From positions 32,001 to 96,000 of the forward strand of contig JBNGDF010000007.1 in the NCBI GenBank assembly GCA_049975265.1: a DNA stretch of 64,000 bases, written 5' to 3'. Position numbers and translations under genes: made by a program. The stretch is from Fidelibacterota bacterium (lineage in GTDB: Bacteria > Fidelibacterota > UBA2242). How positions within the stretch are numbered: position 1 is the first letter of the stretch; each line of letters opens with the position of its first letter. The notes beneath the pieces were generated by a model. The model made no database searches, was not told where the DNA came from, and saw only the letters and a list, made by a program, of their open reading frames with translations. Shown piece after piece: positions 31,984 through 53,104 of the stretch.

Positions 31984-32034
31984 AGAAAAGCGCCCGGGAT
32001 ATGGGGTCTCGGGCGCTGGTTTATTGATAAACGT
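31984..32034 (-). repeat. 51-bp direct repeat, copy 2 (terminator-like hairpin)
   Basis: Matches 30004-30054 at an offset of 1980 nt. Confidence 0.8.
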
Positions 32035-42768: not shown

Positions 42769-43902
42769 TTACCCGGCATAAGGCTCCGCCAGATATCGCC
42801 TGGCTTCCTCCATAGCACTGCTGCGATTGTCCAGTGAAGCAGCCTTTTGATATAGTTCAAGAGCAGCCTGCCGTTTGCCCTGCAGATCATAGATTTTACC
42901 CAGACGCACATAGGCATTGCCCAGATCGAAATCCATCTCTGAGTCGTAAGCCGCAATATATTCGGACAGCAACCGCGCCGCCAGTTCCAGATCACCTTCG
43001 AGAAACGCCCGGCTGCCGTGAAAAAGCTTCAGACGCTGCTTATATTCCTTATGAAAAAAGGGCTCCATACCGGGCAGACGCTTTTCGATTCTCTTCAGGT
43101 TTTCGGTTACGTCCGGGTTGCCGGTCTGAATTTTCATCTCCGCGTACATGTAATTGAAATAGGGGTTGTCGGGGAACTCTTCCAGTAGCATATCCAGCCA
43201 GCGTTGCGCCTCGCCGTAATTGGCTTCGAAGTAAATATTGAGATAGGCTAAAAGGCTGCGCGCTTCATAACGGCTATAGTTCCCCTGCAGGGCAGCAGTT
43301 TCAATTTGCTGCAAGCCCTCTTCCTTGGAGCCGGAAATTTGCAGAATCCAGGAGGCAATTTTCATGAACTTTGACGAGAGCCCGACATAATAATTAAAAA
43401 CACCGAAAGCAATGATAATATCGGGATTGTCGGGATTTATTTTCAGCGCCGATTTAAAGTTGCGAATAATGCGATAACCACTGATTAACACTCCCAGATA
43501 ATCCTTTTCCGCCAGCAGGACCCGTGCCCGGAGTCCGTTCGCCAGCCCCATATAGTAGATAATTTCCGAGTTATCCGGGTCCAGCACCAGCTGCCGGCGA
43601 TAATCGAGCAGTACATCTTCAATATCCGCCAACAATTCCCGATTCCCGGCGGCATGCCCGTAATTGCCCTGATTGTAAATCCATTCGTTGGCGACCGCGC
43701 CGAGCGGACCGAGCGGATGATAGGGTTCATTCCCCGCAACCTCTAAAAAAATATCCCGCGCCTGTTTATGCTCCATCCGGTTCATGGCTTTCAGTGCTTC
43801 CTGCAGGCGCGCCTCCTGCATTTCAGCGGTCTGCGCTCCGAGCGGGAGAGCCATCGGGAGCGAAAAACAAATATTCAGCAGAATGATCTGGAAATATTTC
43901 AT
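42769..43902 (-). CDS. Secreted TPR protein
   Basis: Signal peptide from ATG 43902; several TPR-like helix pairs; G.FNYY...G..EEG motif. Confidence 0.75.
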   Translation of the reverse strand: MKYFQIILLNICFSLPMALPLGAQTAEMQEARLQEALKAMNRMEHKQARDIFLEVAGNEPYHPLGPLGAVANEWIYNQGNYGHAAGNRELLADIEDVLLDYRRQLVLDPDNSEIIYYMGLANGLRARVLLAEKDYLGVLISGYRIIRNFKSALKINPDNPDIIIAFGVFNYYVGLSSKFMKIASWILQISGSKEEGLQQIETAALQGNYSRYEARSLLAYLNIYFEANYGEAQRWLDMLLEEFPDNPYFNYMYAEMKIQTGNPDVTENLKRIEKRLPGMEPFFHKEYKQRLKLFHGSRAFLEGDLELAARLLSEYIAAYDSEMDFDLGNAYVRLGKIYDLQGKRQAALELYQKAASLDNRSSAMEEARRYLAEPYAG

Positions 43903-43989
43903 TAAATCCCGTCTTTTTACCGGACGTTTAGGAAAATGCCCCAATTACTCGGGGCATTTCGATTATCATCACGCAAGCGTTCAATCGGA

Positions 43990-44922
43990 TTATTCAATAA
44001 AGTCGGCTTCCATGAAATCTTCCAGGCGAAATCGCCCTTCCTTTTCCAGTTCGCGGACCTTTTCGACAATCAGTTTCTGTGCCGCTTCCACTTTGCGGCG
44101 CGGCTGCGGACCCTCCAGCAGTTCCATCTCATCTTCCAGAATAATCTGGGTCCGCTGCGGCAGTGAATTAATAAAGAGTTCCTTTATCTCTTCACTCTGC
44201 CCCTTGAGAGCATAGGCAATTTCCGAGGCTTCCACGGATTTCAGGACATCGGAAAGAATGTCGTGCGGCAGCTTCGGCAGGTCCTCAAAACTGAAGTAGT
44301 GGCGTTTGACCTCCTGGACGATGTCGGGCGCCTCTTTCTCCAAGTGCTCCAGGAAACGTTTTTCGTCCTTGGGACGCATCTGACTAAGAATGCCGGCGAG
44401 ATTTTGACCGCCGCCCCGTTTGAATTCCGAAGCCCGGGGAATAAAAGCCGATTTCTCCTTTAAATCATTGGCAATACTAACAACCCCTTCGAGAGGAATG
44501 TCGTCCAGATGACCGATTTCGGTCACTACTTTGGGCTGAACCGTCGGGTCCAGCGCCTGCAGCACATTCACTTGCCGTTCCACGGGTAGCTGGGCAATCG
44601 TCAGCGCCATAATCCGCGGCGATTCTGTGCCGATCAGATAGACAACCTGTTCGTCGGTAAGGTTGCTTAAAAACTCAAAAGGCTTTTTAGTCTCCTCGGT
44701 AGCCGGTGTGAATTTCTCCGAGACAAAACTGAAATAAAACTCCTCCAGAATCTCCTTTTTAACCTGGAAAGGAATATTATTAATCGTCGCCATCCGCTGA
44801 CGCACCTTCTGAATCTGCTCCTTGCTCATACCTTTGAAAAGCTGCAGCGCCAGATTATTTCCCAATGTTTTAAACAGGATGGCTACTTTATCTAAACCGT
44901 CGAGATTTTTAAAATCCACCAT
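43990..44922 (-). CDS. fliG: FliG-like rotor protein
   Basis: LDGLDKVAILF..LG (FliG-N), PFEFL and GG linker, YFSFEDL (MFxF equivalent), C-terminal R....LEDE..L.GP....VEAAQ..IV..VR.LE.EG; strong AAGGAGG SD. Confidence 0.9.
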   Translation of the reverse strand: MVDFKNLDGLDKVAILFKTLGNNLALQLFKGMSKEQIQKVRQRMATINNIPFQVKKEILEEFYFSFVSEKFTPATEETKKPFEFLSNLTDEQVVYLIGTESPRIMALTIAQLPVERQVNVLQALDPTVQPKVVTEIGHLDDIPLEGVVSIANDLKEKSAFIPRASEFKRGGGQNLAGILSQMRPKDEKRFLEHLEKEAPDIVQEVKRHYFSFEDLPKLPHDILSDVLKSVEASEIAYALKGQSEEIKELFINSLPQRTQIILEDEMELLEGPQPRRKVEAAQKLIVEKVRELEKEGRFRLEDFMEADFIE

Positions 44923-44936
44923 TTTTTCCTTCCTCC

Positions 44937-46370
44937 TTAGAATTCTGATTCGCTCTCTTCGGCTTGTTTCTGCTGGCTCAACCACTCATTGATCACGCGG
45001 GAAGCCGTCTCGGGCTGACCGACGCTCATGGAGATGACCGACTGTTTGATACCCTTCATCTCCTCTTTGGCAGCACCGATATCATAGGATGCTTCCTGCT
45101 TGGGTGTTTCGGCTGCCGGTGCACTTGGTGGTGCCTGCTCCGGCGGCGCAGCGGGTGTCGAAGGCTGGACCGGCTGGGTCGGTTGAGTAGGCGTCGTCTG
45201 CGACGGACGCGGTCCCATGGGTACTTTCGTCCCATAACCCCATTCCAATTCCTGGCGTTTCTGATGATTGCGCCGATTAACCAGCAGTATAATCACCAGT
45301 ACTATCAGCGCGACGGCAAAGAGTCCCAAAATGATATAGAAAACCCGATTGTCCATCTTTGCGAATCCGGGCGGGGTTGTCTCCAGGGCACCCATCTCCA
45401 ATTCCTGCAGCCTGCGATTGCTTTCCCGCAGCTGCTCCTTGAGATTGTATAATTCCGTCTCACGGGCATCGGCAAGGGCGCGGGTCTGTTGCCGCTGATC
45501 ATCGGAAATCTGCGGCGATTCCAGCTGATTTTTCAGGTCTGAAATCTGTCTGCGCAGCTCCTGAATCCGCAGCGAATCCCGAATGACTGCCTGGCGTTCA
45601 AGTTGCTTCTGCTGTTCAATTTGGGATAGTCTTTCGGCTTCCTGCTGACGGCGCTCGAGATTATCAATCTTTTCAGCGATGTTTTTCAGGATAATGGCTT
45701 CCGCGGCGTCCTGATCTTCCCGCTTTTTAAAGGAGGCTGTCATAACGCTGATAACATCACCCCGGGAGCGGTCGTAATGGGAGGCGACGGCAACTACCTG
45801 ACGGACATTTTCGATAATTTCAGGAGTAACCCCATCCTCCATAATGATATTGACCTGCTGCCTCTTAATTACCGGAATCGCCGGACCTGTTGAGCGGGTC
45901 GTCTTTGCAGATTTTTTTGTAGGAGTCTGAGCGGATTCTCGGGTAACTTCCTCCGGCGGTCCTTCCCGCAGGGTGGCTGTCGCTGCTTCCTGTTCCGCCC
46001 GAACGATCTCCTCCGGTGTCTCGAAGCCGGGTAAAGGCAATCCCAAATCCGAGCTGGGTCTGACCGGGCGTTGCTCCTCCGCCTCTGCCGGTGCCGTTTT
46101 AACTTGTGTTTGGGCGGTCTCTCCGATTGCCATCTCCGTATCTTTCGCCGCCTGAAACTCCAGTTCAACCACCACATCAACTACAAACTTGATATCATCC
46201 AGCAGTTTGTCCAGCGCTTCGGTAATCCGCTCACGGAGATTGTTCTCCAGCATCAGCTTCTGTGAAAGATAGGACAGTTGATTGTCTTGTGATGGTGTCC
46301 AGATCACTGTGATAATCAAAATGATCCCAATCAGCATCCATTTATTGAATCTTGTCCGACTCTTGAGCAT
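44937..46370 (-). CDS. Reduced FliF-like ring protein (RBM3/S-ring + coiled coil + TM + FliG-binding tail)
   Basis: LENNLRERI..L......V.V..EL.F and IKRQQV.I.......V..VVA.A...D.SRGD.ISV....F match the two halves of FliF RBM3; C-terminal PETASRVINEWL; directly upstream of fliG. Confidence 0.72.
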   Translation of the reverse strand: MLKSRTRFNKWMLIGIILIITVIWTPSQDNQLSYLSQKLMLENNLRERITEALDKLLDDIKFVVDVVVELEFQAAKDTEMAIGETAQTQVKTAPAEAEEQRPVRPSSDLGLPLPGFETPEEIVRAEQEAATATLREGPPEEVTRESAQTPTKKSAKTTRSTGPAIPVIKRQQVNIIMEDGVTPEIIENVRQVVAVASHYDRSRGDVISVMTASFKKREDQDAAEAIILKNIAEKIDNLERRQQEAERLSQIEQQKQLERQAVIRDSLRIQELRRQISDLKNQLESPQISDDQRQQTRALADARETELYNLKEQLRESNRRLQELEMGALETTPPGFAKMDNRVFYIILGLFAVALIVLVIILLVNRRNHQKRQELEWGYGTKVPMGPRPSQTTPTQPTQPVQPSTPAAPPEQAPPSAPAAETPKQEASYDIGAAKEEMKGIKQSVISMSVGQPETASRVINEWLSQQKQAEESESEF

Positions 46371-46385
46371 CGTCCTTCTCCTAAT

Positions 46386-47069
46386 TTATAAAATTGTCAA
46401 AAAGAATATTTCAACACGCCGATTCATCGCCATACGCTCGGGGGTAGTATTGGCTTCTGCGATCGTTGCTCCGGGAGCCCGGGGACGTGTGTCCGCATAG
46501 CCAATCGCCTGAAACCGCTCGGGCGAAATGCCCCGTGCAATGTAGTAACGCACCACCTGCGCCGCCCGCGCCGCCGAGAGCTCCCAATTGGAGGGAAACA
46601 TCGCCGACCGAATCGGTACATTATCGGTATGTCCCTCGATGGCAATCGGATAATTGGATTTTTTCATCATATCTTCGAATTTATTTAAAATCGGGTAGAT
46701 ACGGGGATTCAGATCGGCACTGCCGATTCCAAAGGATATTTCACTGGGAATCTTGATGGCGACACCACGCTCGCTGGTCTCCACCTGAATCTGCTCCTGT
46801 AAATTTTCCTCCTCAATGACCTTGACTACATCGGAATAGATTTCCGCCAAGGAATATTTTTTGGTTTTCGCCTTCTTACCCAGCGCCTGTCCGACGGAAT
46901 CACTGAACTGCTCCAGCTTGACGGGATCAATTGTAGACATGGAAAAGAGCAGCACGAAAAAGGTCATCAGCAGCGTCATCATATCGCCGTAGGTCACCAG
47001 CCACGGTTCTTGATCACCCCTGGACTCTTCGAATATATTTTTCTTTTTACGTTTGCCTTCCTCTGCCAT
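46386..47069 (-). CDS. motB: Stator B subunit (MotB/PomB/MotS family)
   Basis: WLVTYGDMMTLLMTFFVLLFSMS TM with the conserved Asp; OmpA-like IEGHTDN.P, SNWELS.ARA and NRRVEI. Confidence 0.95.
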   Translation of the reverse strand: MAEEGKRKKKNIFEESRGDQEPWLVTYGDMMTLLMTFFVLLFSMSTIDPVKLEQFSDSVGQALGKKAKTKKYSLAEIYSDVVKVIEEENLQEQIQVETSERGVAIKIPSEISFGIGSADLNPRIYPILNKFEDMMKKSNYPIAIEGHTDNVPIRSAMFPSNWELSAARAAQVVRYYIARGISPERFQAIGYADTRPRAPGATIAEANTTPERMAMNRRVEIFFLTIL

Positions 47070-47075
47070 CTGACC

Positions 47076-47864
47076 TTATTCCTCGGGTTTTTTCCAGTCA
47101 CGCGGTCTCAGATAGGAATTCAGTTTTTCACGTACGATCAGAGGATGCTTGCGGGCATGTATCAGTAAAACTCCCTCAATCAGCATCTGCTGCATCATTG
47201 TCTGATTCTTAATCCGGATTTCGAACTTTTCCGCCATGGGATTAAAAAACATGTTCGCCAGAATTGTCCCGTAAAACGTCGTGATCAAGGCAGCGCCCAT
47301 TCCGGCACCCAAAACTGCCATCGGATCGTCACCGCCGCCAGCCATGTCAGCCATTCCGTACAGCATCACCACCAAACCGATCAGTGTTCCGATCATTCCA
47401 AAAGCCGGCGAATATTTGCCCATCGTCCGCAGCACATTGGCTTCGCCCTTTTCCCGTAATATCCGGTTTTCGATGCGGGTTTCCAGAATTTCCCGAATTT
47501 CATCGGGATTATAGCCGTCAATCACCATCTGGAGACCATCACGAAGAAAGAAATTTTTGACACTGCCCAAAGATTTTTCCAGTTCCTGCATACTCTTTCG
47601 GGCAATCGGTGCCAACTCCACAATAGCATCCACTTCGCTAGGCAGATCAATCTTCTGCTTTTTGAACACCGCAAAGGTGGAGCGCAGCAAACCGAACACA
47701 TCCCGCATGGAAAAGCTCAGCAGCGTTGCGGCAAAGGAGCCGCCTGCCACAATCAGAAAGCTGGACAAGCTTACGAAAACAATAAAATTCGGGGTCAACT
47801 GGTAGATTCCCAGTACAATCAGTCCAATTCCGGCAAAGATCCCCAATAGACTCGCTATATCCAT
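47076..47864 (-). CDS. motA: Stator A subunit (MotA/PomA/MotP family)
   Basis: MD.ASLLG, IV.GGS.AA, FL..GLQMVIDG, PAFGMIGTLIGLV.ML, ALITTFYG...AN....P and I.EKL.SYL. Confidence 0.95.
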   Translation of the reverse strand: MDIASLLGIFAGIGLIVLGIYQLTPNFIVFVSLSSFLIVAGGSFAATLLSFSMRDVFGLLRSTFAVFKKQKIDLPSEVDAIVELAPIARKSMQELEKSLGSVKNFFLRDGLQMVIDGYNPDEIREILETRIENRILREKGEANVLRTMGKYSPAFGMIGTLIGLVVMLYGMADMAGGGDDPMAVLGAGMGAALITTFYGTILANMFFNPMAEKFEIRIKNQTMMQQMLIEGVLLIHARKHPLIVREKLNSYLRPRDWKKPEE

Positions 47865-47879
47865 ACAGTACTTCCCTCT

Positions 47880-49223
47880 TTATTCCTTTCGCGTTGATCC
47901 CGTGCTTCTCAGACGATTTTCATTCAGAGCCCGTAAAATATTGCGTACATCATCATATTCCGGGTCGATACGCAGCGCCAGATTCCAGTTGATCGTCGCC
48001 CGGTCAATATCACCTAGTTTATAGTAAATGGAACCGCGGCGGGCGTATGCCAGCGCCAGGTTGGGATTCAGATCGATAGCCGCTTCGACCTCCTGCAGCG
48101 CTTCCCGATACTCACCGGCATAGAAATAGCGCAGGGACCGGGAGAGATGTTTCAGGGCTAAATTGATATTCTGTTCCAGGGCATGTTTCGCCAGTTTGGC
48201 GGAACGCACGGAATCTTCCAGAACCGCCGTCTTCTGCCGCAGCTGGGCGATCTCACTGGTCAAATACTTTATTTCTGACTCGAATATTTTCAGGGAATCT
48301 CTCAATTTGGCAATCTCATAATCCGCCGCCTTTAACGTCGAATCCAGCTGAATGGCAAACTGTTCTTCCATATCCAGAATTAATTGAGTCTCTTCGTCCA
48401 CCATCCCCTCAAGCCGACGGCGGCGTGCGCTTTCCGGTTTGACTCTGGGAATCCGAAAATCCAAACCAATATTCAGACTGGGGTAATTCTTGGTGGCACC
48501 GAGGTTAAAATCTTCCGCTCCAAAATTGTACAATTTGACCAGATTGTTTACGCCAAGCATCAGGTTATAGTCCTTGGTAAAGGGAATCCGCACACCGGCA
48601 TTGATCCCGCCGCCGTCGAATTCGCCGATAAATTCTACCCCGCCCCGCTCCGCCATGATGCTGGTATGGAGCAGAATTCCCGCAAATACTCCGGCACTGG
48701 TGGTGGAGTCGCTGCCAAATCCGGTCGCCAGCCCTCCGGTCCCAAAACCCATATAGGTACAGAGATTGCTGGATTCAAACTGCTTTTCGTTGCTGATCAC
48801 ACCGAAAATAGACAGGGTTTTTGTGTCGATGTTGAGCTCCTTGTCACCCTGCTTCAACACCAGGTCATGTATCCCGGCGGAAAAACTGATATCTCCGTAG
48901 ACAAACAGACGCTTCTGAAAATGCAGCCCGAATTCCACCGGCGGACCGGAACCGACACCCTGGATAGAGGTCACCCCGATTTTGAAGGTATTGGACAGAT
49001 CAGTTTCGAAAAACACTCCTCTCGTAATCAGTGTATCGGCAAACCCATAGATGTCGGTACAAATTCCTGTCCGGAACACATAGGGGGTCCGATAGATACT
49101 GCTGGTGGGAATTTTCATCATGTAGCCGGGCTTCGTAAATGCAACCCGGGTTATCTGGCCGGAGAGCGAGACGGTCAGGATTATGCTTGTCAAAATTTGG
49201 ATATAACCACGTTTTATCATCAA
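47880..49223 (-). CDS. Secreted protein: beta-strand-rich N-terminal domain (possible OM barrel) + coiled coil + TPR
   Basis: Signal peptide; amphipathic Gly/aromatic strands (EFGLHFQ, EFDGGGINAGVR, NIGLDF); heptad region; TPRs (AYARRGSIYYKLG). Confidence 0.7.
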   Translation of the reverse strand: MMIKRGYIQILTSIILTVSLSGQITRVAFTKPGYMMKIPTSSIYRTPYVFRTGICTDIYGFADTLITRGVFFETDLSNTFKIGVTSIQGVGSGPPVEFGLHFQKRLFVYGDISFSAGIHDLVLKQGDKELNIDTKTLSIFGVISNEKQFESSNLCTYMGFGTGGLATGFGSDSTTSAGVFAGILLHTSIMAERGGVEFIGEFDGGGINAGVRIPFTKDYNLMLGVNNLVKLYNFGAEDFNLGATKNYPSLNIGLDFRIPRVKPESARRRRLEGMVDEETQLILDMEEQFAIQLDSTLKAADYEIAKLRDSLKIFESEIKYLTSEIAQLRQKTAVLEDSVRSAKLAKHALEQNINLALKHLSRSLRYFYAGEYREALQEVEAAIDLNPNLALAYARRGSIYYKLGDIDRATINWNLALRIDPEYDDVRNILRALNENRLRSTGSTRKE

Positions 49224-49242
49224 TTCCTACTCCCCTTTGGTC

Positions 49243-49995
49243 TCAATCCATGGCGCCCAATCGTTTCAGTTCCAGGTCTGCCAGCTTGGCCATCTGACCC
49301 TCCGGAAATCGCCTGAGAAGCCGTCTAAAAAATATTTCCGCCATCCTTTTATCCCCCAGTTTGCGGTAGGTCACTGCCGTCAGAAACAGGGCATCATCGA
49401 GATTTTCGCACAGCGGATATTCTACGACTTTTTTCAGATATTCTAAAGCAAGATATTCGTCTTTCAGATAAATATAACAGTTACCAATCCAGAAATAGGC
49501 ATCGCCGATCATAGCGCCGGGCAGGTCACTTTCAATGCTTTTCTGAAAGTAATCCACGGCAACAGGATAATTTCTTGTCAGATAAGCCGCCTGCCCCTTC
49601 TCAAAAAAACGCTCACCCTCTTTCTTGGTATAACGGATACGGGGATTACCCAGATTGGCATGGGGGGACTGAAAAACGAGATGTTTCAGCCGCTGATTCT
49701 CGATTACCAGTGAATCGACCAAGTTTCGGATTTCCGTTAACTGCTGTTCGACTTGTGCATGACCGTGGGAAAGGGCCAAAGAGAGGGAGTCTATTTGGTT
49801 CTGCAATTGAACCATCATTGGGTTCGCAACGCCAATGCCGTGAAGGGGGGCAGACTCCCTCGCTGGCTCTATGGTTATCCCTAAATCGTACATAAATCCC
49901 TGATCCGCCGTCCCCCGGCTGCTATCGGCTTTCTGGGCAAATATCGCGAGGGGCATAATCAACATCAGTGCCAATCGATTCACATTCCCATTCAA
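49243..49995 (-). CDS. CpoB/YbgF-like coiled-coil + TPR periplasmic protein
   Basis: Signal peptide, coiled coil, DAYFWIG.CY, DDALF..A and RRFPEG. Confidence 0.75.
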   Translation of the reverse strand: MNGNVNRLALMLIMPLAIFAQKADSSRGTADQGFMYDLGITIEPARESAPLHGIGVANPMMVQLQNQIDSLSLALSHGHAQVEQQLTEIRNLVDSLVIENQRLKHLVFQSPHANLGNPRIRYTKKEGERFFEKGQAAYLTRNYPVAVDYFQKSIESDLPGAMIGDAYFWIGNCYIYLKDEYLALEYLKKVVEYPLCENLDDALFLTAVTYRKLGDKRMAEIFFRRLLRRFPEGQMAKLADLELKRLGAMD

Positions 49996-50786
49996 AATTT
50001 TTCTTGGGTCGTTAAATATTTCCGGGCTTTTTCCACCAGTTCACTGTCTGGAAATTCCCGCTCCAGCCGCCGGAAGGCAGCCAGTGCATCCGGCTGATTG
50101 TTCATTTTCAGATAGCTCAGACCGATCTTGAACAGCGCCGCATCGGCTTTATTGCCATCGCCCAGAGGTTTCACTTTCTGAAACGCTTCCACGGCTTGTG
50201 GATATTTTTCCTGCGAATAGAGGTTTTCGCCAAGCCAGTACTGGCAGTTATCCGCCAACGGATGCTGTCGGCTCGTTTGCAGCAATATCTGAAAGCGCTT
50301 CATACTGGCTGAATAATCCCGGTCGAAATAGAGGTTCAACGCCTCATTGTATTGTGTCCGGTATTCCGAATCGTTCACCTCGTGAACCAGCGTATCGGCA
50401 TCCTCTGCCACCACGTTGTTGGATTTGATCGATTCCAGAATCTCTTCCGTCAGGGCTTTGTCCTCATCAAAGGTGTTCACAATGAGCTTGAAATTTTCCA
50501 CCTGATTCTGCTGCTCTTTGAGTGAATCCACTTCCGACTGTTTCGCCATCAGCGAGTCTCGCAGCTGCCTGTTATACTGTTTCAACCGCTGGATTTCTTC
50601 CCGAATTGCCTGGAGCTCGGCATCGTGAACGCTGATCTCGGACTGCAGCTCCAGTACCTCGACGTTTTTATCGCTGAGTTCGGCTTTTTTTTCAGAAATC
50701 TCGTTAACAGTGGAATCGGTCTGGGCTGCAATGACCATGATCATCCCTATGAGCAGTGCGAGAGCTTTGATCCGGAGAGCCGTCAT
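49992..50786 (-). CDS. CpoB/YbgF-like coiled-coil + TPR periplasmic protein
   Basis: Y..AL..Y....Y..S...F, LADNCQYWLGE, KADAALFKIG and FPDS; ATG overlaps the upstream TAA (TAATG). Confidence 0.8.
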   Translation of the reverse strand: MTALRIKALALLIGMIMVIAAQTDSTVNEISEKKAELSDKNVEVLELQSEISVHDAELQAIREEIQRLKQYNRQLRDSLMAKQSEVDSLKEQQNQVENFKLIVNTFDEDKALTEEILESIKSNNVVAEDADTLVHEVNDSEYRTQYNEALNLYFDRDYSASMKRFQILLQTSRQHPLADNCQYWLGENLYSQEKYPQAVEAFQKVKPLGDGNKADAALFKIGLSYLKMNNQPDALAAFRRLEREFPDSELVEKARKYLTTQEKF

Positions 50787-51745
50787 TACTGATACTGCTC
50801 CCATTCGATGGTGTAGGAATACCCGATAAAACTGCCAAAATCCTTCGGGATGATCAGTTCAAATTTTCCCGTCGCTCCGGGCAGAAGCGAATTATTGGTC
50901 GTGATACCCGAATCCTCAAAGGTGTAATAACTGCCCTCGACGAAAGCGGTGCGGGTTTTGGTGTCACCACTCCAGTTTTTACGAAAAATAAAATTAACTT
51001 TGACGAAATCCGCCCGCCGGGCACCGATATTCTTCACCTCACCGGAAAAGATGGTGTTCCCCGAACGGTCTTTCTGCTCACTGATATTACCCACCAGAAC
51101 ACAGTTGGGCGTCTTGGCGCTGCTTTCCGACAGCTGTGCCGGCTCGCTGGCTTGGGAAACATAACCGGGCTGTGGCACCGGCGGATAGGCGGCGCTTTTC
51201 TGGACATCGCTGACCAGCTCCTGGGGTATATATTTCTGGGCAGGTTCTTCCGGCACGTTGGTAATAACCCGGACAATCGAGGCTTTTTCCAGCACGAGAT
51301 ACCCGATCAGGGTCTCGACCTTGACGATCTTATCATCCTGGTAAATTATTTTTCCGTAAATGGATGTACCGTTATCGGTGATAATTTCCTTATCATAGAT
51401 TGCCAGCGGATTCATCCACATCTGACTGTTAGCTTGCAACTCTTCCAGTTGAGAACGCAGATGCTTGAGTTCGGCGGCGAGCTTTTTCACTTCAAAAGTC
51501 AGCTCATTTACCACATAATTCGCATCGGCGCTGCTGCTCCGTATGGGAGCCGCCGGCACGGTTTTTACCTCTGCCGGAGTCTCTCCAGTCGCTCCGGATG
51601 CTGTTTCTGTCCGGATTTCGCTCGTTGTCTGAGCGGTCTGAATCTGTTCCGTCTCACTCTTGTCTGCGGTCCTGCTGCCGAACAGGCTGCACCCCTGGAC
51701 AAGGGGAACTATGAGGAGGGCTGCAAAAAATATTTTGGCTTTCAT
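50786..51745 (-). CDS. Lipoprotein: coiled coil + small beta domain + FxLYD-like Ig domain
   Basis: Lipobox VQG-C; heptads; I.TDNGT.I.GKI; C-terminal GEVKN.G...A.FVKV...F and L.PG.TG.F. Confidence 0.7.
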   Translation of the reverse strand: MKAKIFFAALLIVPLVQGCSLFGSRTADKSETEQIQTAQTTSEIRTETASGATGETPAEVKTVPAAPIRSSSADANYVVNELTFEVKKLAAELKHLRSQLEELQANSQMWMNPLAIYDKEIITDNGTSIYGKIIYQDDKIVKVETLIGYLVLEKASIVRVITNVPEEPAQKYIPQELVSDVQKSAAYPPVPQPGYVSQASEPAQLSESSAKTPNCVLVGNISEQKDRSGNTIFSGEVKNIGARRADFVKVNFIFRKNWSGDTKTRTAFVEGSYYTFEDSGITTNNSLLPGATGKFELIIPKDFGSFIGYSYTIEWEQYQ

Positions 51746-51814: not shown

Positions 51815-51844
51815 AATATAGTCTTCATATCGGGTGAATGTCAA
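51815..51844 (-). promoter_or_regulatory. Sigma70-type promoter of the motor-like operon
   Basis: Minus strand TTGACA-18 nt-TATATT about 70 nt upstream of ATG 51745. Confidence 0.55.
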
Positions 51845-51967: not shown

Positions 51968-53104
51968 TCACTTGAACGGAAAACGTAACAGGGCTGCCAT
52001 ATGTCCATATTTTTCCATCGGCAGCTGGATATATTGCACGTTCACCCCCTGTTGCAGAGCCAAATGCAGGATATGTTCATTGATGTTCTGGGTACGTTCC
52101 AAAGGACCGCCGTGTTTAGGACATTCCGCCTCCGGTGAAAGGTCCAGATAGTTACAGTGCCGGCAAAAGACCCCTTTGCGCTGATAACTGTTGTTCAGTA
52201 AAATCGTATCGATCCATTTATCCCGCAGTTTTGGCAGAATAGCGTCGATTCCTTCCATTGTCTGACCGGCTTTCTTCTGATTTTCAAACTGTTGTAGCAG
52301 CTCCTTCTCAAATTTCAAGCGGGATTCCCGGCTGGCTTTCTGCACCTTTTCAAAGACATCGTTCAGCGGCGCATGGGGTTCGATGTCGATTACGGCGGTG
52401 ACCTTCCCATCGACGTAATCGTGCAGATACTTGCGAAATTCTCCGATGGACTCCCGCCGTCCGCCGAGAACGACCCAGTTAAAATCGTGGGACTTATTCA
52501 GCACAAACATTTTTTGCGCTACCTCTTTGTAATGCTGAATAATGCCCTGATGGATATTTCGCTCCACCTTCCGCTCCTGGCGTCCCTGATAGCCTCCTAC
52601 CTTCACCGATTCCGGCGCATTATCGGTGACTTTAAACAACTCTTTAAAATCACCCAAGGATTGTTCAAATATGCGCGCCTTGGATTTGTCAATCAACAGT
52701 ACGCCGTACCGACGGTATTCGCTGAACAGCTGCGACAGCTGATAGATATATGGTTTTGGTTGTATGACCAACTCATTCTGCAGGGGAATTTTCAGGTTTA
52801 TGACCTTCCAAAATCCGCTTTTGCTCTGACAAAAGCAGATCGAGCTGACATATTTCGATGTATCCAGTTCCACCTCAAACCAGTTGACAATACGATCAAA
52901 GTCATCGAGAACGGAGTTTTTCTCTACCTCGGTCAACTGCTTGAAGTAGGTGGTATTTTTTTTATACCGGATCATCTTTTTCAATTCGACAAGGTGAGTC
53001 TTATGGTTTCCGTTTTTAATATTCGCCGTAAAATAGGCACTGGTTACCGGATAATCATTTTGGGTAAAGTGTGCCAACTCCCTGACAACATCATTTTTGA
53101 TCAT
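51968..53104 (-). CDS. Bacterial aeRF1-superfamily release-factor-like protein (baeRF)
   Basis: PV.S.Y, PYI..L......Y, LIDK.KARIF, GG.Q...ER, VVLGG and a C-terminal CxxC...CPxH Zn-ribbon with ALLRF. Confidence 0.78.
   Translation of the reverse strand: MIKNDVVRELAHFTQNDYPVTSAYFTANIKNGNHKTHLVELKKMIRYKKNTTYFKQLTEVEKNSVLDDFDRIVNWFEVELDTSKYVSSICFCQSKSGFWKVINLKIPLQNELVIQPKPYIYQLSQLFSEYRRYGVLLIDKSKARIFEQSLGDFKELFKVTDNAPESVKVGGYQGRQERKVERNIHQGIIQHYKEVAQKMFVLNKSHDFNWVVLGGRRESIGEFRKYLHDYVDGKVTAVIDIEPHAPLNDVFEKVQKASRESRLKFEKELLQQFENQKKAGQTMEGIDAILPKLRDKWIDTILLNNSYQRKGVFCRHCNYLDLSPEAECPKHGGPLERTQNINEHILHLALQQGVNVQYIQLPMEKYGHMAALLRFPFK

Follow-up and report, generated by a model that had tools for sequence, protein, structure and literature searches.

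The 64,000-nucleotide stretch analysed here (the window; positions 32,001 to 96,000 of contig JBNGDF010000007.1, assembly GCA_049975265.1, from a Fidelibacterota bacterium) carries on its minus strand, at 43990-51745, eight open reading frames that include motA, motB, a gene for a FliF-like ring protein and fliG, and that very probably encode some kind of functional stator-rotor assembly outside the flagellum. This operon is present in roughly two in three of the genomes sampled from the phylum Marinisomatota (SAR406). It is real and conserved and apparently undescribed in the literature searched, and its motor does not evidently fall within the Gld, Tol or other non-flagellar families. As to what the assembly does, we favour, with a probability of roughly 0.45, a one-way, probably sodium-driven ring motor that would be coupled through Pro-Gly (PG) loops to the stalk and TPR part of a predicted outer-membrane barrel protein and would thereby move or pull surface cargo of the type IX secretion system.

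The source genome (2.86 Mb in 66 contigs, 95.3% complete) gave no match, in profile searches of its contigs, to FlhA, FliP, FliMN_C, Flagellin_N, Flg_bbr_C or CheW, models that each matched four to eight of 14 control genomes (FlhA and FliP, four of 14). An earlier, sequence-only reading had noted that filament, export, switch and chemotaxis genes are missing from the window, and for these six models the lack holds genome-wide. Among the features expected of a flagellum, the MotB plug, the OmpA domain and the essential aspartate of a flagellar-type stator are found; an export gate, axial proteins, FliM/FliN with the EHPQ motif to which FliM binds, and a FliF with three RBM domains are not found in this genome and its operon.

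The operon was surveyed in 301 draft genomes of the phylum, those listed being 57-100% complete. Raw searches gave matches in 226 genomes for FliG, in 204 for the C-terminal part of the first gene of the operon (core gene 1) and, over the cut-off, in 67 for FlhA. After 28 FliG matches weaker than 1e-45 and four gene-1 matches weaker than 1e-12 had been dropped as below orthologue level, FliG was retained in 198 genomes, gene 1 in 200, both in 189 and either in 209. FlhA is absent from 147 of the 189 genomes with both markers and present in 42, another 22 genomes carry FlhA but not the operon, and neither is found in 70; these tallies are counts without a statistical test, and kin genomes are not independent. 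Among the clusters of gene 1 listed in the ESM Atlas, the commonest source is Fidelibacterota. The order gene 1, barrel-TPR gene (core gene 2), motA, motB, FliF-like gene, fliG is kept in all 20 distant loci, which were picked among FliG matches on sufficiently long contigs, and in 11 of 12 further loci, the remaining one being truncated; in one of these loci (L123) the barrel gene is split. In metagenomes, 79 of 80 loci fit the order, and all six genes occur in 23 of the 24 loci with at least 7 kb downstream. Such conservation argues that the arrangement is not due to chance. As exceptions to this order, a remnant of gene 1 stands alone between the usual flanking genes in L154, and L136 lacks motA and most of motB; two further loci hold FliG fragments (L063 and L064). 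The kept order together with these losses indicates a core of six genes that can disappear as a block, and such loss in relatives (L154, L063, L064) fits a function tied to lifestyle. The sequence-only reading had described eight tightly packed, co-oriented genes, and they are indeed present in the order given, with overlaps or gaps of 4-19 nt between neighbours. As a conserved unit, the eight genes stood up in part: throughout the phylum the envelope genes keep their place next to motAB-fliG, but the core comprises six genes rather than eight, because CpoB-like genes number two (six of the 20 distant loci), one (12 loci) or none (two loci).

It could be argued that the operon is a scattered or degenerating piece of an ordinary flagellum, as its four motor genes all have flagellar homologues and FlhA is found in the 67 relatives mentioned above. 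This is very improbable. Each of the five flagellated members of the phylum that were checked has a second FliG and a separate MotB of its own, in clusters with the usual fliF-fliG and motAB layout (fliE/H/I and hook genes recognised by eye), and the flagellar FliF of one of them (G010) matches both Pfam FliF domains. The finding that would have spoken against the sequence-only reading, a flagellar gene set lacking fliF/fliG/motAB of its own, was thus not made in these 5/5 genomes, and since these relatives have a complete second set, the operon is best regarded neither as a scattered flagellum nor as the remains of one in decay; moreover, it is intact phylum-wide. In a quick FliG tree (five outgroups, long branches), the operon proteins form a single clade (Shimodaira-Hasegawa-like approximate likelihood ratio test, SH-aLRT, 100), which a long stem separates from ten flagellar rows. 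This quick tree cannot place the origin of the clade, and the earlier suggestion of an ancestral-type machine was not borne out by it; the uses suggested in the same reading, namely gliding, secretion or envelope remodelling, likewise stay at the level of proposals.

The stator is of the flagellar type. MotA (47076..47864, minus strand, as for all genes of the operon; PF01618, 1e-27) is PomA-like: its best relatives of solved structure are the MotA of 8ucs/6ysf (3e-45) and PomA (6e-39), and it scores 1e-54 and 4e-51 with MotP/PomA models and 8e-5 to 6e-4 with those of ExbB/TolQ. MotB (46386..47069) has a plug (2.7e-21) and matches the OmpA-like peptidoglycan-binding domain. The residues used for mapping were those described for PomA/PomB, that is R88, K89, E96, D114 and R232 for rotor contact and T158/T185/T186, with T21 of PomB, for the sodium site (PMC10374538). 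Among 39 aligned operon MotA proteins, R89 is found in 39, K/R90 in 37, E96 in 38 and D116 in 36, the sodium-site threonines T160/T195/T196 in 39 each, and T26 and D29 of operon MotB likewise in 39/39 each. A new acidic residue, E/D94, occurs in 38/39 and is Ala in seven comparison MotA proteins. Judged by these residues, the stator is probably sodium-driven. Away from the operon, the source genome holds a second, orphan MotA (C21:2079-2927, L224) and, on a separate contig, a divergent orphan MotB (C5:135551-136234, L223). Divergent extra MotB genes occur in 18/25 operon-bearing genomes and in 2-3/25 operon-lacking ones, some arranged as motA-motB-motB (L216, L217), and these orphan or extra subunits are possibly alternative stators for the operon rotor. 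In two other loci (L218:4339-6454 and L219:4399-6511), also away from the operon, motA-motB is followed by a gene for a small exported protein, with a weak DUF4352 match in L218.

The rotor combines familiar and remodelled parts. FliG (43990..44922; start probably the ATG at 44922, giving 310 aa, in line with relatives) shows all three domains (N, M and C), each scoring above its Pfam cut-off, and retains R/K257 in 35/35 and R276 in 33/35 operon rows. The histidine of EHPQ is present in 0/35 operon proteins versus 5/5 flagellar ones, and the linker between the N and M domains measures 19-25 aa in the 35 rows versus 47 aa in five flagellar rows, i.e., it is about 27 residues shorter. The FliF-like protein (44937..46370) has YscJ_FliF_C as its sole Pfam match (1.2e-7), and its profile, compared with solved structures, finds FliF RBM3 best (2.9e-7), with its PG and C-terminal motifs aligning to FliF. 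The structure model begins with an N-terminal helix, followed by a single RBM3-type domain (26-212) that contains a disordered insertion (74-164), then by long helices at 218-284 and 290-330, a transmembrane helix (346-364) and two C-terminal helices, with a predicted local distance difference test score (pLDDT) above 90 in the RBM3 core. P114, G115 and the tail residue W463 are each kept in 46/46 rows. The last residue of the first hydrophobic stretch is A/G/S in 41/46 rows, and Gln follows it in 42/46, which suggests a cleaved signal peptide instead of the first transmembrane helix. In FliF, the S-ring is built from RBM3 by itself, and the export gate sits within RBM2 (PMC11739650); a protein without RBM2 would therefore provide no export gate. 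The stalk of the FliF-like protein varies from 45 to 212 residues (median 162), and its length does not co-vary with that of the barrel-protein stalk (rho 0.01, 37 loci).

The exported partners are less familiar. Core gene 1 (50786..51745), the only one of the eight genes whose product has no Pfam match in the Pfam/NCBIfam search, encodes an exported protein. Its structure model comprises a linker, a helix (72-111), an Sm/Hfq-like domain (116-164) and an Ig-like domain (211-318); fold comparison gave Hfq (Z 7.8, rmsd 1.8 A, 49 aligned residues) and Ig-like domains (Z 7.8, rmsd 2.5 A, 85 aligned), though Z values below about 8 may reflect common arrangements only, and Foldseek returned nothing at E<=1e-3, its weak rows being SadB, FlaF/FlaG and Hfq. 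The sequence-only reading called the product a lipoprotein; this is predicted for the source genome (Cys19), but the lipobox cysteine is found in only 22/40 aligned rows, and a member from the ocean clade carries a CarboxypepD_reg-like domain at its N-terminus instead. A paralogue of this protein (27% identity; C11:42584-44778 of the source genome, L222) is encoded between HEAT-repeat and PilZ-domain genes, a possible link with cyclic di-GMP (c-di-GMP). Core gene 2 (47880..49223) encodes the predicted outer-membrane beta-barrel, a stalk of about 94 residues in the source genome (83-103 aa over 37 loci) and a C-terminal TPR tip, recognised by Pfam, that is the most conserved segment of the operon. 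A candidate paralogue on contig C14 of the source genome turned out to be a generic TPR protein. A complex prediction with gene-1 protein (72-319), barrel protein (290-447) and FliF-like protein (26-220) scored 0.17 against a mark of 0.32 and is evidence neither way.

The accessory, variable genes between these two encode CpoB/YbgF-like proteins, one with coiled coil and TPR (49992..50804; TIGR02795, 3e-19) and a second with TPR (49243..49995; TIGR02795, 9e-10), both matches lying below the cut-off. They recall the Tol-Pal system, and together with the presence of only three MotA/ExbB genes and the lack of a TolB_N match in the source genome they would suit an envelope machine in which ion flow is used to pull on the outer membrane or the peptidoglycan while cells grow or divide. 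We consider such a role improbable: the CpoB-like genes are the dispensable part of the operon, the operon is absent from many lineages, a FliG ring is not needed by Tol motors, and weak TolB_N matches in 7/25 operon-bearing and 2/25 operon-lacking genomes show no anti-correlation.

The operon resides in a phylum that appears equipped for type IX secretion. SprA was found in 292/301 genomes, the source genome and even genomes of about 1 Mb included, and the source genome has 80 matches to type IX tails. Two of its open frames, of 4,115 aa (near position 159154 of contig C5) and 2,540 aa (near 9823 of C33), bear such tails and are candidate adhesin cargo. GldM_1st matched 0/101 genomes, but no control genome matched it either, while SprA is near-universal in Marinisomatota. 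In Bacteroidota gliding, the carrier barrel SprF bears SprB, and type B cargo genes adjoin the genes for their carrier barrels (PMC12635249, PMC9127263).

Taken together, these parts can be arranged into the following working model. MotA and MotB retain the ion-path residues of PomAB and most of the rotor-contact charges in their sequences; by analogy with the flagellar motor, MotB would be the peptidoglycan anchor and MotA would turn the FliG ring. There would be no chemotactic switch, because FliM/N, CheW and the EHPQ motif are missing. The conserved tail of the FliF-like protein is predicted to be gripped by FliG, and its single transmembrane helix and a stalk of 130 residues would raise the RBM3 ring into the periplasm. 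In the next and weakest step, the invariant PG loop, aligned with the beta-collar loop region of FliF, would hold a substitute for the shaft. We take the PG motif to lie within the beta-collar loops of FliF. Those loops transmit torque to the rod in the flagellum (bioRxiv 10.64898/2025.12.04.692373). The best candidate for the shaft is the stalk-TPR part hanging from the barrel, with the gene-1 and CpoB-like proteins as a possible bushing or scaffold, and the barrel may bear surface cargo as SprF bears SprB.

Fused forms that may be related to this arrangement also exist. A search of longer sequences with the operon-FliG profile brought up a single 608-aa protein, which led to a family of 22 unannotated proteins (P0121 and P0125-P0145; 570-650 aa), one of them a named Bdellovibrio protein. 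These are FliF-FliG-like fusions that start with a weak RBM3-like match; Pfam recognises nothing in P0121. They align to operon FliG (97.6%) more readily than to flagellar FliG (70.8%), and the operon model scores higher in 22/22, a comparison that is biased by the choice of the seed with the operon-FliG profile. In two genomes of the phylum without an FlhA match, G034 (L214:6918-14590) and G062 (L215:4308-12010), a FliF-FliG fusion is followed by motA, motB, a cargo gene and a barrel-TPR gene, near genes for polysaccharide export (Wza/Wzc-type) and a probable response regulator. The cargo protein has 1,120 aa, FG-GAP/Ig repeats and a type B (CHU_C) type IX tail; the barrel is weakly PorV/FadL-like, and its TPR part matches that of core gene 2 (98.4%, 35% identity over 84 columns). 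A cargo gene of this kind next to motor genes speaks for the proposed link between the motor and type IX cargo. Joining the split form of Marinisomatota with the fused forms of Bdellovibrio relatives and these two genomes, one might see a second lineage of the flagellar engine, a single widespread and deep-branching class in which a barrel is driven in place of the rod and an external adhesin or propeller is supplied by type IX secretion rather than type III export, and thus a natural minimal rotor-stator; we regard so broad a claim as doubtful.

A number of observations weigh against the ring-motor reading, and some of them lend themselves to other explanations. Its link to type IX cargo is loosened by lineages that lack the operon and keep SprA (28/30 genomes of f12, 20/22 of g22 and 5/5 of f29), and strict co-occurrence of the operon with SprA was rejected, since SprA is present in the 292 genomes regardless of the operon. 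No cargo gene lies in the operon of the source genome. The barrel of core gene 2 is predicted from ESM features, by which its N-terminal part resembles a YjbH-type cluster (0.93), and no Cys column reaches 40% or more of 38 rows, which leaves no conserved cysteine for a disulfide link of the SprF type. With respect to the fused operon of G034 and G062, its FliG part is nearer flagellar FliG (3e-14) than operon FliG (3e-10) and its barrel and that of core gene 2 cannot be aligned, so this form may be a separate invention, and its TPR likeness to core gene 2 is partly generic. The same operon-lacking lineages bear on another possibility, that the motor is the energy chain of the type IX system itself, replacing GldLM-GldKN and ejecting carrier-cargo complexes from SprA. 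The abundance of SprA and of tails, the GldM_1st result with its unmatched controls and the fact that ejection is the energy-requiring step of type IX secretion (PMC12635249) would favour it, but since SprA persists in lineages without the operon such a motor cannot be obligatory, and we consider this role unlikely.

The rotor contact is altered as well. The site corresponding to PomA R232 is hydrophobic in 39/39 operon MotA proteins, so that a contact charge is lost; the arginine of the GPVR motif is lost in 35/35 operon FliG proteins; and the torque helix is four residues shorter in 24/35 (a derived clade), the source genome having the long form. Rotation, assembly and expression of the motor remain a proposal from sequence, and the cultured species of the phylum, which may or may not carry the operon, is described as non-motile (PMC11652737). 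With the shorter FliG linker, the shortened torque helix of most members could point to a static ring, in which the FliF-like protein and FliG form a fixed scaffold that places stator units acting directly on periplasmic partners. This is quite improbable in view of the conserved rotor-contact charges of MotA, R/K257 and R276 of FliG, and the wall anchor of MotB. The remodelled torque helix and the non-motile species would also agree with a load or surface sensor that moves nothing: like flagellar stators, its stator and ring would sense the drag acting on a surface protein and pass this on to c-di-GMP signalling; the lack of switch proteins and CheW (0/5) and the gene-1 paralogue beside a PilZ gene in the source genome can be read in the same sense. 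Nonetheless, the loci read show no signalling gene in operons of the source-genome type, and an Rfam scan of the window and four related loci gave no match, and a sensor seems to us as unlikely as a type IX energiser.

Compared with known machines, the ring motor shares with the flagellar core a stator with plug and OmpA domain, a three-domain FliG, RBM3 and a FliG-binding tail in FliF, and the sodium-site and most rotor-contact residues. It differs from that core in a FliF-like protein without RBM1/RBM2, with a likely signal peptide in place of the first transmembrane helix and a stalk added before the transmembrane helix, in a FliG with a shorter linker (by some 27 aa) and without EHPQ, in a genome without FliM/N, export gate, rod, hook and filament, and in exported partners of its own. 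The type IX/gliding chain of Bacteroidota (GldLM, GldKN, SprF-SprB) is alike in the proposed model, where ions drive a motor in the inner membrane, a ring lies in the periplasm and a carrier barrel in the outer membrane extends a tail into the periplasm, and SprA and tail-bearing cargo are shared by the phylum; however, the motor here is MotAB-FliG, not GldLM, the barrel lacks a conserved Cys, and homology to Gld proteins was neither found nor is claimed. With ExbBD, TolQR, AglRS and ZorAB (the GIT group and relatives; PMC12505986), the operon shares an ion-driven A/B motor outside the flagellum, and its CpoB-like neighbours recall Tol-Pal, whereas its MotA scores with flagellar stators, its MotB has a plug and FliG stands alongside; a torque interface is described as a feature of flagellar stators in the same source. 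Flagellar-type ring parts are reused outside the flagellum in the injectisome and in SpoIIIAG/AH rings, which keep or serve transport; we know of no MotAB-FliG pair in them. The operon is the converse of the injectisome, with the motor kept and the exporter absent. No description of the operon was found in the literature searched, and the main text of PMC13277936 and PMC12505986 contains no mention of the phylum, although their supplements may list homologues; to that extent the earlier statement that no characterised system has this composition agrees with ours.

The surroundings of the operon can be described briefly. A predicted sigma-70-like promoter (TTGACA-18-TATATT; 51815..51844, minus strand) lies 70 nt upstream of gene 1; it agrees with the consensus at 11/12 positions and is the best site in 8.8 kb, as a consensus match only. 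Directly upstream of the operon, at 51968-53104, is a release-factor-like gene of the baeRF10 family (possible ribosome hibernation), which is kept in family f1 and in f8/f10 loci. Between fliG and ispG, at 42769-43944, lies a gene for a 391-aa TPR protein that is found only in close relatives and remains where the operon has been lost; it is probably outside the machine.

Flagellar-type stators paired with FliG have been treated as specific to the flagellum. Here, most genomes sampled from a phylum abundant in the ocean contain a conserved, dedicated MotAB-FliG-FliF set that lacks exporter, rod and switch. If the motor turns, it would be a new use of the rotary motor and would offer a natural minimal motor of four proteins for reconstitution. 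One could then also test whether a rotor and its stator are able to function, and to evolve, independently of type III export, and a turning motor would hint at a surface behaviour of SAR406 that has so far gone unrecognised.

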